A stretch of DNA of 46,958 nt, taken from positions 1-46,958 of the forward strand of contig CAYGAE010000002.1 of assembly GCA_964347855.1 (NCBI GenBank), read 5' to 3'. The stretch is from an uncultured Candidatus Bathyarchaeia archaeon (GTDB taxonomy: Archaea > Thermoproteota > Bathyarchaeia > Bathyarchaeales > Bathyarchaeaceae). Numbering within the stretch: position 1 is the stretch's first letter; every line of letters starts with the position of its first letter. The notes below the pieces were generated by a model. It did not search any database and was not told where the DNA came from. It saw nothing but the letters and a program-made list of their open reading frames with translations. Positions 19,998 to 24,477 of the stretch are shown one piece after another. A program made the translations under genes and the position numbers.

Positions 19998-20459
19998 TTG
20001 AACGAAGGAAGTTGGAGCCCTCCCAAATGGATGTATCGAGACAAACGACCTCCCAATGACGACGGCTATTTTGAAAACATGAGTAGAGTTATCTTTCTGG
20101 CCGGGTTGAGTTGGAAAATGATTGGTGAAAAATGGCCTAGCTTCAGGAAGGCTTTCCGGAACTTCTCGGTGGAAGCGGTTGCCAGATTCAGCGAAGAGGA
20201 TATACAGCGACTTATGGGCGATGCAAGCATAGTGAGGAATCAGGCAAAGATAGTTGCGACAGTCAACAACGCGAAACAATTTCGTAACATAAAGAAGAAA
20301 CATGGATCCTTCCAGCGTTATCTCGAGAGTTTGGACAAATCCAGCAATTATGCTTTGGTTACAAAGGAACTCGGCAAGAGATTCAGTAGGATTGGTCCTT
20401 CTTCAGCGCGTCTCTTCTTGTACAGCGTGGGAGAAGACATAAGGCGACCTATGGAATAA
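19998..20459 (+). CDS. tag: DNA-3-methyladenine glycosylase I
   Basis: 153 aa. AGLSW, FRKAF, IVRNQAKI and NAKQF match the Tag family pattern. Confidence 0.8.
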   Translation: MNEGSWSPPKWMYRDKRPPNDDGYFENMSRVIFLAGLSWKMIGEKWPSFRKAFRNFSVEAVARFSEEDIQRLMGDASIVRNQAKIVATVNNAKQFRNIKKKHGSFQRYLESLDKSSNYALVTKELGKRFSRIGPSSARLFLYSVGEDIRRPME

Positions 20460-20476
20460 TGCAAGCTAAGTGTACA

Positions 20477-20483
20477 CGCGCGC
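20477..20483. repeat. alternating (CG)3.5 tract
   Basis: tgtacaCGCGCGCactt, a 15-nt Pu/Py alternation. Intergenic between tag and lrp. Confidence 0.9.
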
Positions 20484-20590
20484 ACTTCCTCAAGAAAAAG
20501 AAGCCAGAAACAGTCAAGGTTTTGGCAGTCTAGAAACGCTGGTCAGTTTATCAAGGGAGACGCCGCTCTAGGATGTACTAGATCAATAGA

Positions 20591-20600
20591 CTTTTAATCT
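20591..20600 (+). promoter_or_regulatory. putative TATA box of the lrp-like gene (leaderless spacing)
   Basis: CTTTTAATCT 21-30 nt upstream of ATG 20621. Confidence 0.35.
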
Positions 20601-20620
20601 ATTTCACCTAATTTTAGTTC

Positions 20621-21112
20621 ATGCGAAAAGAATTACCTCAACTATTGTTGCGGGAACTCCTCAAAAACTCAAAACGAAGCGACAGAGACCTCGCCAAGGT
20701 TCTTAAGGTTTCTCAGCCAACGATCACGAGAGCTCGCCACAAACTCGAAAAGAACGGTATAATCCAGGACTATACCATCATTCCGAATTTCAGAGCCATG
20801 GGTTTTGAAATATTGGCTATGACATTTGTCAAAATGCGTCCTGAAATCCTCACACCGAAGATTATGGAAGAAACCATGAAATATGCAGCAAAGTTTCCCA
20901 ATGTGCTGTTCGCCTCTTCCGGACAAGGTCTAGGTATGACCTGCGTGATCATCTCTTTCCACAAGAACTACACAGAATACTACAAACAGCTGACGGAGAT
21001 GCGGGTTGACTTCAAGGAGCTTGTTGAAGACATTCAAAGTTTCATTGTTAGCATTGGAGAAGGAGAATACAAGAGGTTGTCCACAACTTACTTGAAACAT
21101 GTACCTCTTTAG
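20621..21112 (+). CDS. Lrp/AsnC-type transcriptional regulator
   Basis: 163 aa. N-terminal HTH (SDRDLAKVLKVSQPTITRARHKLEKNGIIQ) plus a C-terminal RAM-like domain. A TATA-like CTTTTAATCT lies 21-30 nt upstream (leaderless). Confidence 0.75.
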   Translation: MRKELPQLLLRELLKNSKRSDRDLAKVLKVSQPTITRARHKLEKNGIIQDYTIIPNFRAMGFEILAMTFVKMRPEILTPKIMEETMKYAAKFPNVLFASSGQGLGMTCVIISFHKNYTEYYKQLTEMRVDFKELVEDIQSFIVSIGEGEYKRLSTTYLKHVPL

Positions 21113-21150: not shown

Positions 21151-22497
21151 CTATTGAGCTTCGGCGCAAATATAGTTCCTTTTCTGGATGTCCAGTGGGC
21201 ATCCTCCTCCGCAGATTTGGAGGTGCGTACAGTCCTTGCACTTTGCTTCTACGTATTCTCTATTTCTTATCTGCACCGCAAGGGGGTGATCCCAGATTTC
21301 TTGCCAATCATCCTTGAGGATGTGACCAAGGCTCTCAAAGTAGCTTTGACAAGGATAAACGTCGCCATTTGGCCCAACGCACATGTTGATCTTTGCCGCT
21401 GTGCACGATTTGACGCCTAGACCTAATCTAACGGGATCGAAGTGGCAATATTGGGTTGGAGTGTACCATAGAAACTTTAGTCCCAGCTGGTTTGCTTTTT
21501 CATGAATTTTGGGCAAAAGCTCTTTCAGGGTCTCGAGGGGTAGGATGAACTCCTCGGTTATCTGGTTGGCTTTTCCTGAGTAGATGAGACTGTTGCAGCC
21601 AAAGGCGGCAACCCCGAGTTCCTTTAGGAAGTCTATGGTTTCCATGAAATCTTGGGCATTGTATCTGCTAAGAGTGGTATTTGTGGTGGCGTAGATCTGC
21701 GTTGGGATGATGTTCTTGATTCCAGCGACAGTTTCTTTCCAGCTTCCTTTGGTTGCTGTCATTAAGTCGTGGATTTTGGGCTTATGGGATTCCAGGGTCA
21801 CCTGAACAAAGTCTAATCCTGTCTTCTCAAGGAGGTCAACGTAGGTTTTGTCTTTCAATCTTCTGCCGTTGGTTATGAGCCCGGTGACCATGCCCTTCTT
21901 TTGTCCGTAGAGCAGGAGTTCTGGCAAGTCTTCACGGAGTGTTGGTTCGCCTCCGGTGAAGTCTAATATGAACACGCCAATCTGATGAAGGCGATCGATG
22001 ACTTCTTTCCATTGTTCTGTGGCAAGCTCGGAGGTTTCGTGGGGTCCGCCGGCGTAGCAGTGGATACAATTGTTCTGGCATCTGAAAGTGAGTGCCAAAT
22101 CCATGCGTAGCGGAGCTGACAGCTGCTGGGTGAAGGGGTCCACTTGCTTTACGTCGAGAAAGGATATTGGGCAGACTTCCTCAGTCTGTGCCAACGTGCT
22201 TACTGTGTAAATCAACCGCTCGTAGTCATTCGTCACCGTCTCCCTGTTCACTCGATACAGGCGCCTGATTTTATCGACGGCTTCGCGGGTCGTCATGCCT
22301 TGCATAAAGAAGAAGGCGTGTGCTGTGGCTGTCTCGTTTAAATACAGAACCGTATTGGCGTTAACCACTAATAAACCCTGACCATCTGGCTCCACACGAA
22401 GCTGAAGAGCCAAACCCTCGAAATCACCAGTTCCTCGATAAGTATATCGACCTCGAGGAATCTTAGATGCTCGAAACACCTTGCGCAGAAAGCTCAT
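21151..22497 (-). CDS. radical SAM/SPASM maturase with N-terminal PqqD-like RiPP recognition element
   Basis: 448 aa. Residues ~40-105 (LLVVNANTVLYLNETATAHAFFFMQGMTTREAVDKIRRLYRV...DYERLIY) match the PqqD/RRE pattern. rSAM motif CQNNCIHCY. C-terminal SPASM cysteines CTAAK..C...PC...CKDCTHLQICGGGCP. Confidence 0.9.
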   Translation of the reverse strand: MSFLRKVFRASKIPRGRYTYRGTGDFEGLALQLRVEPDGQGLLVVNANTVLYLNETATAHAFFFMQGMTTREAVDKIRRLYRVNRETVTNDYERLIYTVSTLAQTEEVCPISFLDVKQVDPFTQQLSAPLRMDLALTFRCQNNCIHCYAGGPHETSELATEQWKEVIDRLHQIGVFILDFTGGEPTLREDLPELLLYGQKKGMVTGLITNGRRLKDKTYVDLLEKTGLDFVQVTLESHKPKIHDLMTATKGSWKETVAGIKNIIPTQIYATTNTTLSRYNAQDFMETIDFLKELGVAAFGCNSLIYSGKANQITEEFILPLETLKELLPKIHEKANQLGLKFLWYTPTQYCHFDPVRLGLGVKSCTAAKINMCVGPNGDVYPCQSYFESLGHILKDDWQEIWDHPLAVQIRNREYVEAKCKDCTHLQICGGGCPLDIQKRNYICAEAQ

Positions 22498-22516
22498 AAC
22501 TACCGGCTACCTCCTC

Positions 22517-24145
22517 TCATCCCACCCCTCCACCAGCACAAGCGCAAGCACATGAGACACAAGCACAGGCGCACGCGCAAGCCGCGCACGCACAGACGCA
22601 GCCGGATCGATGGTGGGCGGGTTGTGTAGAGGATTTTGCCGCTGGTGTTCGCACAATGGCGCTAGCGAATTTTTCGAGGTTTGTAACAATTCTGTTTGAG
22701 GTGTTTTCTACTGCGGTTGCTATGTTGTTTGCGAAGTCTGCGCCAGGAATTGTGGGGGGTTTTGCCGCTTTGGTGGGTGCCGTTACGTTTGGTTCATACG
22801 TGGGTTTGGGGTGGTAGTGCCGATAGCTGTACCAGTACCACAGCCAAAAGGGGCTCGGCTCAAAAGCCAGGTCGCGGAACACTGTTCTAGTGCGCGACTG
22901 ATAGTTGGGGTCAAGGAAGAGCCACAGCAATTGTTCGTCATAGGCTTTCGAGGCTAATGCGGGTGTGCCCGCTTTCTCGACTTGTGCCCAAGCTTTCGCC
23001 ACGATCTTTCGGTAGTAGTCGGTTGTGTCGCGGCGGCAGTATCCACGCAGTTTTTCTTCAACTGTATGTCGGAGGAACCGCATTGTTTGTGCCAGCTTCT
23101 CTTCGTCGAGGGTTCCATCTGCCTTAATGGCGTGGAGAAAGTCGATTTCGTAGTAACGGAGGGATATCTCAGGCGTCCCAGTCTTGTTCTCGAATGCTTG
23201 CATGATTTTCAGTTTGAACTTGGGAGTGGTTGACTTGACCCATATGGCTCTCTTCTTCAAGAGACTGTACATGATTTCTGTGACTATTCTTGTTGGCTTT
23301 AAGTCGAGGAGGTATGATGCCTCGACGGCTGTAAAGCCGTGCCTGATTCCAAGGGTTTCCATGCTGAGTGTGGGCGTCAGATATGGTTTCTTGCGGATCA
23401 CATAGACAACGGCCCCGATTGCTCCGATGGATATTCCAAGTATCAAGAGGGCAGGTCCATATTGCTGAAAAAAGGCGACTATACCGGTGGGCTCTGTCTC
23501 GTAACTCTTTACATACTCCTTGGGAAAAGAAACTCCAAAAGTGTACCTCTGATTGGGCGAAAGCTCTCGTCTCTGCCAGAATACTGACAATCGGTCTTCC
23601 TCTGGATACGTGCCGTTCCAGAGCTCTTGTGTGGTCGTTACGTTTTCGGTGGTTACGCCAGGAGGCAACACAATCTGTACTTGAAGGTCGAGCACTCTTG
23701 CTTCTTCCCACCAAGTTGGTATGAACTCCATACCAACGTTGTCCGGTGTGTCTTCGTATATCATGCGGGAAACGTTTGTCGTAAGGTTGAATCTGACAGT
23801 CTGCCCTGCTACTAAAGGCTCGTAAAGGCGAACCTGCACCCTGTAATCGCTTCCAGAGCTCGCGTCGGTGGCCACAAGCATGTGGCCATACTGGTCCATA
23901 GCAGTTACTATTTCGAAGCCTCCCTTAGGTTGACCAACATAAACGAAATTTATGAGGTCGCCGGAATCGAGTGCTATACTGATGTCGTAAAGCAAATCGA
24001 TGGTTCCATCTTGGTTTATCCATATCTTCGCCCATTCATGTTCTAGATGATACTCTCCCTCCCACTGTGCTGCTGCAGTGCCCATAAATGTCAATGAAAG
24101 AACCATGGCCGACACTGCGACCAGCAAAATAGGGTGCTTCACCAT
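22517..24145 (-). CDS. DUF2207-like membrane protein with C-terminal (Cys-Ala)n tail
   Basis: 542 aa: signal peptide, extracytoplasmic beta-rich domain, one TM (ALLILGISIGAIGAVVYVI), a cytoplasmic helical region and an aromatic patch (PFWLWYWYSYRHYH). The terminal sequence is SGCVCACAACACACACVSCACACAGGGVG. The DUF2207 resemblance is from memory. Confidence 0.7.
   Translation of the reverse strand: MVKHPILLVAVSAMVLSLTFMGTAAAQWEGEYHLEHEWAKIWINQDGTIDLLYDISIALDSGDLINFVYVGQPKGGFEIVTAMDQYGHMLVATDASSGSDYRVQVRLYEPLVAGQTVRFNLTTNVSRMIYEDTPDNVGMEFIPTWWEEARVLDLQVQIVLPPGVTTENVTTTQELWNGTYPEEDRLSVFWQRRELSPNQRYTFGVSFPKEYVKSYETEPTGIVAFFQQYGPALLILGISIGAIGAVVYVIRKKPYLTPTLSMETLGIRHGFTAVEASYLLDLKPTRIVTEIMYSLLKKRAIWVKSTTPKFKLKIMQAFENKTGTPEISLRYYEIDFLHAIKADGTLDEEKLAQTMRFLRHTVEEKLRGYCRRDTTDYYRKIVAKAWAQVEKAGTPALASKAYDEQLLWLFLDPNYQSRTRTVFRDLAFEPSPFWLWYWYSYRHYHPKPTYEPNVTAPTKAAKPPTIPGADFANNIATAVENTSNRIVTNLEKFASAIVRTPAAKSSTQPAHHRSGCVCACAACACACACVSCACACAGGGVG
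22535..22600 (-). repeat. coding quasi-repeat (TGY-GCN)n encoding the Cys-Ala tail
   Basis: Codon-by-codon reading of the minus strand gives CVCACAACACACACVSCACACA. It is an imperfect hexanucleotide periodicity inside the CDS. Confidence 0.9.
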
Positions 24146-24477
24146 TTTGGTTCCTCGGCTACTTCAAATGTTTGTCCACAATAGGGACATGTAGCATACG
24201 GGACGCCAGAAACGATTTTGATCTGTTTGGCATCTATGGAAGCCGAACAGTTGGGACATTTGAGCGAAACAGCTTTCATCGGTCCTGATAGTTCCAACCT
24301 CTGGATTATCGTCTTCGGCTTTCTGGTTATATAGTAGACTATTCCAAACCCTACAGCAAACAATAAGGCGGCAACGATTAATCTTGTAGGTGCATAAACT
24401 GAAGCTAGAGCAAATATGATCCCGAAGAAGAAAAGAACGGCAACAGCAATTGCGCCTAGCACTATTTTGAGGTTCAC
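24139..24477 (-). CDS. two-TM membrane protein with C-terminal zinc ribbon
   Basis: 112 aa: two hydrophobic helices, then CPNC...(19)...CPYC. Its stop overlaps the next gene's start (ATGGTGA, 24139-24145). Confidence 0.65.
   Translation of the reverse strand: MNLKIVLGAIAVAVLFFFGIIFALASVYAPTRLIVAALLFAVGFGIVYYITRKPKTIIQRLELSGPMKAVSLKCPNCSASIDAKQIKIVSGVPYATCPYCGQTFEVAEEPKW

Follow-up and report, generated by a model that had tools for sequence, protein, structure and literature searches.

A Cys-Ala tail on a Bathyarchaeial membrane protein as a candidate substrate of the neighboring radical SAM/SPASM enzyme

The locus and the Cys-Ala tail

The window analyzed here is a stretch of 46,958 nucleotides (nt) from an uncultured Candidatus Bathyarchaeia archaeon (GenBank assembly GCA_964347855.1, contig CAYGAE010000002.1, positions 1 to 46,958). 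It contains three tandem genes on the reverse strand, which we refer to as a cassette. Gene 1 encodes a small membrane protein with a putative zinc ribbon, gene 2 a membrane protein that ends in alternating cysteines and alanines (the tail protein with its Cys-Ala tail), and gene 3 a radical S-adenosylmethionine (SAM)/SPASM enzyme with an N-terminal recognition element (RRE) of the kind found in maturases of peptides that are made by ribosomes and then modified after translation (RiPPs). The stop codon of gene 1 overlaps the start codon of gene 2 (ATGGTGA), and the features of all three genes are collected in Table 1. An earlier note on this DNA had singled out the tail but did not connect it with the radical SAM gene located 19 nt downstream; we regard this gene as the key to the tail.

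Table 1. Positions of the cassette genes and their features in the window (AF2, AlphaFold2; ORF, open reading frame; pLDDT, predicted local distance difference test; TM, transmembrane)
Feature	Position	Strand	Description	Basis
Gene 1	24139..24477	(-)	112-aa small membrane protein; N-terminal hydrophobic region, C-terminal CPNC...CPYC zinc ribbon	ORF, hydropathy, sub-threshold zinc-ribbon Pfam/NCBIfam matches
Gene 2, tail protein	22517..24145 (incl. stop)	(-)	542-aa type-I membrane protein bearing the Cys-Ala tail	AF2 mean pLDDT 82
Ectodomain	23480..24067	(-)	Acidic, Cys-free beta-sandwich, residues 27-222, after signal/anchor helix 5-24	AF2 strands 31-208, pLDDT >94; Foldseek; K+R 13 vs D+E 30
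TM helix	23396..23479	(-)	Single helix, residues 223-250, then RKK	Hydropathy, AF2
Cytoplasmic part	22601..23395	(-)	Basic, residues 251-515: winged-helix-like and helical domain, conserved GLTAVEAxxLL motif, Pro-rich linker, helices 468-498	AF2, alignment
Cys-Ala tail	22520..22600	(-)	C516-G542, 27 residues, CVCAC-AA-CACACAC-VS-CACAC-AGGGVG, 3+4+3 Cys	Most conserved block of the family; disordered in AF2
Spacer	22498..22516	(-)	19 nt with GAGGAGG, stop of the tail gene to start of the radical SAM gene	Read from sequence
Gene 3	21151..22497	(-)	448-aa radical SAM/SPASM enzyme with N-terminal PqqD-like RRE	Pfam, invariant Cys, AF2, Foldseek, phmmer
RRE of gene 3	22186-22452	(-)	Residues ~16-104	PqqD matches in orthologues, AF2
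SPASM Cys of gene 3	21199-21447	(-)	Seven Cys, residues 351-433	Pfam, alignment

Translation of 22517-24145 gives a 542-residue protein whose C-terminal end is CVCACAACACACACVSCACACAGGGVG; read up to its TGA stop codon, the protein ends in ...HHRSG-CVCACAACACACACVSCACACA-GGGVG. Nucleotides 22520-22606 encode residues S514-G542, and ten cysteines fall within the 22 residues C516-A537. The translation thus confirms the C-x-C register, broken by AA and by VS and followed by GGGVG and the stop, that the earlier note had described. The other 515 residues of the protein hold a single Cys, and a degenerate DNA pattern for CxCxC matched the 1.74-Mb genome at three overlapping positions, all of them inside the tail, with no match to the reversed pattern used as a control. 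Given this scarcity of Cys in the rest of the protein and the uniqueness of the pattern genome-wide, the tail is not a product of chance.

The earlier note had also raised the question of which side of the membrane the tail faces. Hydropathy and the AF2 model predict the cytoplasmic side, because a signal peptide and an acidic ectodomain are followed by one transmembrane helix, the residues RKK and a basic C-terminal part. The cytoplasm should also be the compartment in which the oxygen-sensitive radical SAM enzyme works, and the two would thus share it. Within the cytoplasmic part, AF2 puts the winged-helix-like and helical domain at residues 273-423 and predicts disorder at residues 503-542 (pLDDT 32-41); the intervening helices 468-498 might act as a leader-like docking segment.

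Conservation of the tail and the family that carries it

A word-indexed search returned more than 1,500 relatives of the tail protein, mostly from metagenome-assembled genomes (MAGs) of Bathyarchaeota. We examined the best 120, which come from independent assemblies and show 67-100% identity. The same 10-Cys string, C[VI]CACA[AST]CAC[AV]CACVSCACACA[GS]GGVG, ends 119 of these 120 proteins, and because homologues assembled independently share it, the tail is not an assembly artefact. The sole tail-less case, P0073 (539 aa, NCBI source), has some 35 C-terminal residues that are unrelated and Cys-free, which a sequencing error causing a frameshift, or a pseudogene, could explain. An unrelated, non-Cys tail in orthologues, which the earlier note had named as the pattern that would speak against it, is seen in just this one of the 120 proteins.

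We compared codon usage in tails from genome loci, 28 archaeal and 44 bacterial. All Cys and all Ala between them proved invariant, whereas TGC and TGT as well as all four GCN codons occurred at each tail position. Since the residues are invariant while synonymous codons vary freely, the comparison points to purifying selection on the tail peptide and not on the DNA repeat. The number of Cys differs only among deep clades and then by whole blocks, with 7 in bacteria and 9-10 in archaea.

An exhaustive search against 50%-identity representatives (E ≤1e-3) delimited a tail-protein family of 567 clusters at 50% identity, and the Cys-Ala motif ends nearly all of its full-length members. The commonest tail consists of a Gly/Ser-rich linker followed by CACACACA-G-CACACA-GGGR (7 Cys), with CACACACAGCACACAGGGR as the bacterial 7-Cys form. 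A second form, CACACACVSCACACACAGGGGCT, has 9 Cys, and the archaeal form found in the window has three blocks of 3+4+3 = 10 Cys. In an alignment of 71 sequences, the protein bodies show a mean column identity of 27%. Conservation of the tail block, expressed as consensus frequency, is 0.87 compared to at most 0.67 for any other block of 20 residues, and the invariant columns include C527, C532, C534, A535, C536, A537, and G539.

The window tail protein had no Pfam or NCBIfam match even at E ≤10, and a six-frame search of the whole genome with PF09972 gave no match. It shares with Pfam DUF2207 proteins the layout of signal peptide, beta-sandwich ectodomain, transmembrane helix and cytoplasmic part, and one NCBI record calls a homologue of it DUF2207. 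However, the family (PF09972 for the N-domain, with a gathering cut-off of 24.4 bits, and PF20990 for the C-domain) does not accommodate the window protein, and at E ≤0.01 just 3 of the 71 relatives match PF09972 and 4 match PF20990. The best PF09972 score among the relatives, 23.9 bits, lies just under the cut-off, and both N-domain matches that we checked fall below it. Membership in NCBIfam TIGR04222 (cut-off 43 bits) was likewise rejected, as the window protein has no match; one of ten relatives (P0204) reaches a sub-threshold 31.4 bits in the domain after the transmembrane helix. The earlier note had proposed that Cys-Ala replaces the Gly-rich tail of a DUF2207-like protein. This does not hold, given the lack of a DUF2207 match and the position of the bacterial Gly/Ser-rich linker, which precedes the Cys-Ala motif. 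From these comparisons, the tail-protein family appears to be effectively unnamed, its members currently being labeled as hypothetical or mislabeled as DUF2207, and it deserves an annotation model of its own.

The radical SAM/SPASM enzyme and the three-gene cassette

The gene 3 product has the features of a radical SAM enzyme, with a PF04055 score of 84.9 bits and a CX3CX2C motif (C140/C144/C147) that is invariant in 48 orthologues. Its SPASM region scores 40.3 bits with PF13186, and the seven Cys that would serve two auxiliary clusters, C351, C365, C383, C420, C423, C429, and C433, are invariant in the same set. The RRE was recognized through the orthologues, 41 of which match PqqD (best E 4.4e-9), and the AF2 model (pLDDT 89, predicted template modeling score 0.89) shows an N-domain with strands at residues 16-53 and helices at 55-104. 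The best full-length Foldseek matches are SkfB, SuiB, and CteB, which are the three RiPP maturases with an RRE whose structures have been solved, and phmmer against the PDB found SkfB at 3e-20. Among its sub-cut-off scores, the enzyme reaches 122 bits for MftC and 116 bits for PqqE. The curated NCBIfam families that were rejected include TIGR04463 rSAM_vs_C_rich, the CrpC family (37.8 bits, cut-off 525); TIGR04340 rSAM_ACGX (75.5 bits, cut-off 400), for which the substrate motif here would be (CA)n and not ACGX; and the StsB family of sactipeptide maturases, NF045574 (74 bits, cut-off 625).

A scan of one genome per species identified 236 relatives of the tail protein, and we analyzed the best 80 loci. 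They come from Bathyarchaeia, other Thermoproteota, Methanocella, a MAG labeled Thermococci, many Anaerolineae/Chloroflexota, Zixibacteria, Cloacimonadota, and a deltaproteobacterial MAG. A radical SAM gene directly follows the tail gene, downstream on the same strand, in about 74 of these 80 loci from two domains and at least six phyla, and in most loci its product is 42-79% identical to the window enzyme. A homologue of the zinc-ribbon gene directly precedes the tail gene in 67 of the 80. Where the downstream gene seemed to be missing, the contig stops just past the tail gene in at least two loci (L036 and L045). Three loci without it in the fetched flank have an orthologue (418-446 bits) at another place in the genome; in a fourth exceptional locus, the radical SAM gene is adjacent but split.

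We also searched an even sample of 151 Bathyarchaeia genomes for both genes. The tail protein was present in 32 and the radical SAM orthologue in 31 of them; both occurred in 30 genomes, always adjacent on one contig. A partial tail-protein match stood alone in two genomes, a partial radical SAM match in one, and 118 genomes had neither. As these genomes are related and not independent, we use the co-occurrence as a pattern and not as a statistic. Because the two genes occur almost only together or not at all in this class sample, the cassette appears to be an accessory unit of patchy distribution that is gained or lost as a whole.

Several observations in Bathyarchaeia concern the fate and copy number of the cassette. 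In a genome of the same order (G013:C55:49920-51866), the tail gene carries one internal TAG and the radical SAM gene is split by a TGA and a TAG, which looks like joint decay of the pair. All ten sampled genomes of one Bathyarchaeia family (f25) have the cassette; in the family of the window, one of five other genomes has a partial match to the tail gene, and the radical SAM orthologue was not found there. We never saw more than one cassette copy per genome in the class sample.

The window cassette has no separate gene for a small precursor peptide, its genes overlapping or lying 19 nt apart, and the 170-nt intergenic region upstream holds only Cys-free ORFs of 30-36 aa. A promoter and terminator scan gave counts equal to the shuffled expectation, using a sigma-70 model on an archaeal host.

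Many Chloroflexota operons are larger. For example, L052:8982-13469 from a Chloroflexia MAG adds a 113-aa PAS-like protein, a signal peptidase, a second RRE-radical SAM enzyme (382 aa, no SPASM match), a weakly zinc-metallopeptidase-like protein, and a class I SAM methyltransferase. None of these extra genes is found in the Bathyarchaeal cassette. Two loci with other taxonomic labels, L018 (Candidatus Acidoferrum) and L030 (Nanoarchaeia), carry the Bathyarchaeal type of cassette with 10 Cys. The L030 enzyme falls inside a Bathyarchaeal clade of the radical SAM tree, from which L018 was left out, and the two loci suggest mis-binned contigs or recent transfer. In this tree, tail type follows enzyme clade but also taxonomy, and we did not count the agreement as independent evidence because both track taxonomy.

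The tail as a candidate substrate

We infer that the Cys-Ala tail is a substrate of the adjacent radical SAM/SPASM enzyme, a reading that we hold to be somewhat more probable than not. Several lines of evidence argue for it: Cys and Ala are both invariant in the tail; the tail gene is adjacent to, and co-occurs with, the gene for an RRE-containing radical SAM/SPASM enzyme in a near-obligatory manner; and the tail, by prediction, lies in the cytoplasm and is disordered. In addition, the cassette leaves no space for a separate precursor gene, the Chloroflexota operons add what resembles a RiPP tailoring set (second RRE-radical SAM enzyme, methyltransferase, peptidase-like gene), and the enzyme class matches that of RRE-containing RiPP maturases.

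If so, the tail would serve as a "core peptide", disordered and cytoplasmic, at the C-terminus of a full-size membrane protein and would be modified after translation. The N-terminal RRE of the enzyme would dock on the cytoplasmic part of the tail protein, and the radical SAM cluster would generate 5'-deoxyadenosyl radicals. The chemistry is a matter of speculation by analogy, with thioether crosslinking as the most likely kind: the C-x-C blocks would most probably receive intramolecular crosslinks of the sactionine or ranthionine type, from the Cys sulfurs to the invariant Ala/Gly neighbors. With the phase shift of one residue between blocks (C-x-C-x-C-x-C-x-x-C-x-C-x-C), each Cys could come to lie opposite an Ala or Gly in a hairpin, as in StsA. 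The reaction would yield a rigid module, rich in sulfur and tethered to the membrane, to which metal may subsequently bind. As the third fixed component, the zinc-ribbon membrane protein might keep the complex at the membrane.

Some findings weigh against this reading. The PqqD score of the window enzyme itself is 16.9 bits, below the Pfam cut-off of 23.4, and the enzyme stays far under the cut-off of every curated radical SAM family. Its best NCBIfam scores, 141 bits for NirJ2 and 130 bits for AhbD, belong to enzymes of the tetrapyrrole type, not to thioether synthases. The potential acceptors in the tail are only Ala, Val, Ser, and Gly, and the Asp, Glu, and Asn acceptors typical of ranthipeptides are absent. 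Adjacency and tail type track taxonomy, and the many loci are therefore not independent observations. Finally, C-x-C is a classic metal-thiolate motif through which an unmodified tail could bind metal.

This last point leads to the strongest alternative, in which the tail is an unmodified metal- or Fe-S-binding site at the cytoplasmic face of the membrane, similar to a metallothionein or a CopY-type CxC array, and is coupled to the radical SAM enzyme in another way. For example, the enzyme could use the tail as a scaffold or as a donor of clusters or sulfur, or it could act on another substrate. CxC repeats are known in this role from the literature on metallothioneins and from the CxCxxxxCxC motif of CopY, the host organisms live as strict anaerobes and have many Fe-S proteins, and AF2 shows no fold for the tail without a ligand. 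The tail does show clustering of CxC motifs. However, the x positions in metal-binding CxC arrays usually vary, while here they are occupied by Ala that is no less invariant than the Cys, a pattern that argues for enzymatic recognition or for a role of Ala in the chemistry. The partner enzyme moreover has an RRE and the full-length architecture of a peptide maturase, and the near-perfect co-occurrence of tail and enzyme would need some other explanation. We consider an unmodified metal site less likely than a modified tail, but a serious candidate. The two readings can coexist, with modification first and metal binding after it.

That the hydrophobic Cys/Ala/Val stretch anchors the C-terminus in the membrane, directs sorting or is S-lipidated, comparable to a cysteine-string or GlyGly-CTERM-type signal, seems very improbable. 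Its Kyte-Doolittle mean of 2.25 over residues 516-534 is at the level of a transmembrane helix, and the bacterial sequence of Gly-rich linker, hydrophobic stretch and GGGR superficially resembles a tripartite sorting signal. Yet sorting-signal helices vary in sequence, whereas the tail is invariant residue by residue; the bacterial stretch has just 15 residues interrupted by Gly; AF2 predicts no helix in the tail; and the three conserved cassette families include no sortase- or acyltransferase-type enzyme, the partner being a radical SAM protein. Of the roles that the earlier note had offered for the Cys array, a cytoplasmic location and crosslinking or metal binding fit the evidence.

Least credible is the proposal that the tail DNA is a slippage-prone, Z-DNA-prone hexanucleotide quasi-repeat that varies the number of Cys between strains, i.e., a contingency locus. 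The DNA is indeed an imperfect (TGY GCN)n run, as the earlier note had seen, because Cys and Ala codons force that pattern, and it contains short runs of purine/pyrimidine alternation. Strict alternation extends over 12 nt at most, though, so the claim of a Z-DNA-prone sequence is weak, and since orthologues vary at every synonymous site, no constraint at the DNA level is indicated. Repeat units differ at synonymous sites within as well as between genomes and are not near-identical, as a simple-sequence contingency locus would have them. Because codons differ freely between orthologues, there is no conserved repeat unit on which to slip, and the same Cys number and register are fixed in 119 of 120 homologues and at the 28 archaeal loci. 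On the compared sequences, slippage is refuted at the between-strain level.

Modification of the tail by its neighbor would have precedents among characterized systems, each of which differs from the cassette. QhpC, a small soluble subunit that serves a quinone cofactor, contains thioethers from Cys to Asp/Glu; no repeat motif is known in it, and no membrane protein is known to be involved. The radical SAM enzyme QhpD forms several intra-protein crosslinks in QhpC during quinohemoprotein amine dehydrogenase biogenesis (PMC7876137). In Streptomyces sparsogenes, StsB makes three nested Cys-Gly sactionines in a hairpin on the CxCxCx4GxGxG core of StsA (PMC10288494). The StsA/StsB/StsC system and the related BlaA/BlaB pair resemble the cassette in having a CxCxC block followed by small Gly and an RRE-dependent enzyme whose closest characterized relative is MftC, and the window enzyme likewise scores against the MftC (122 bits) and StsB (74 bits) models. 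In contrast, StsA is a short free precursor with 3 Cys, while the motif of the tail family has 7-10 Cys with Ala neighbors and, in the window, ends a 542-aa membrane protein; StsC is a separate RRE, while the window enzyme has its RRE fused and, at 74 bits against a cut-off of 625, is not a member of the StsB family.

The nearest published concepts are CrpA/CrpC and a proposal on TIGR04222 proteins. In Methanococcus voltae, the large protein CrpA, which is rich in Cys, is crosslinked by CrpC, a SPASM radical SAM enzyme that has an RRE (PMC13692751, 2026). The CrpA/CrpB/CrpC system thus also pairs an archaeal RRE-SPASM enzyme, with three [4Fe-4S] clusters, with thioethers on a large Cys-rich protein that contains repeats and is encoded by a neighboring gene. 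However, CrpA is a soluble protein in which a 17-residue repeat with C-x-x-Q/D motifs occurs ten times, and it carries ranthionines, whereas the window has a single invariant tail on a membrane protein, and the score of 37.8 bits against a cut-off of 525 places the window enzyme in a different family. A proteomics paper on M. voltae and pyrite concerns other radical SAM genes and not this cassette. For TIGR04222 proteins, the low-complexity, Cys-bearing, Gly/Ser-rich tail of a membrane protein has been proposed as the substrate of an adjacent RiPP-type enzyme (PMC12452194). There, the enzyme is an oxygen-dependent MNIO (DUF692), the tails are predicted to be periplasmic and are variable, and a third of the genomes lack the MNIO; the tail described here is predicted to be cytoplasmic and is invariant, and its association with the radical SAM enzyme is almost obligatory.

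The searchable literature yielded no description of this cassette. Tentatively, and as a possibility that goes beyond the enzyme-substrate relation, it may represent a three-gene system that is widespread, has passed between Archaea and Bacteria and is undescribed in print. In this system, RiPP-type radical SAM chemistry would act on a sensor-like membrane protein of full size, at its cytoplasmic tail, and turn the invariant (Cys-Ala)n into a membrane-tethered ladder of thioether crosslinks or a Cys-derived metal-binding cofactor. If true, anaerobes would have a new class of protein-derived modification or cofactor. What is known of radical SAM/SPASM maturases comes mainly from short peptides, with few cases of thioethers on whole proteins (QhpC and, in 2026, CrpA), and the cassette would add a large multi-phylum family whose substrate is the tail of an ectodomain-bearing membrane protein. 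The physiological role of a modified tail is speculative; one suggested meaning is a sulfur-rich cytoplasmic module coupled to something that is sensed or handled outside the cell. The cassette is abundant in uncultured sediment anaerobes of poorly known physiology, such as Bathyarchaeia and Anaerolineae.

Two further observations concern the surroundings of the cassette and the ectodomain. Downstream of the cassette, on the forward strand at 19998-21112 of the window and converging on it, lie a gene for a methyladenine glycosylase-like protein (PF03352) and one for a 163-aa winged-helix protein with helix-turn-helix matches of the Lrp/AsnC/MarR type; in loci L002 and L003, the flanking genes are unlike these. 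For the tail protein (residues 27-250, 23396-24067), the top Foldseek matches of the AF2 ectodomain, transmembrane helix and cytosolic helices are ribophorin I/OST1 of the eukaryotic oligosaccharyltransferase (8pn9_E, E 6e-11) and the N-domain of M1 aminopeptidases. On these structural matches, a deep link between DUF2207-like prokaryotic proteins and ribophorin I is possible.

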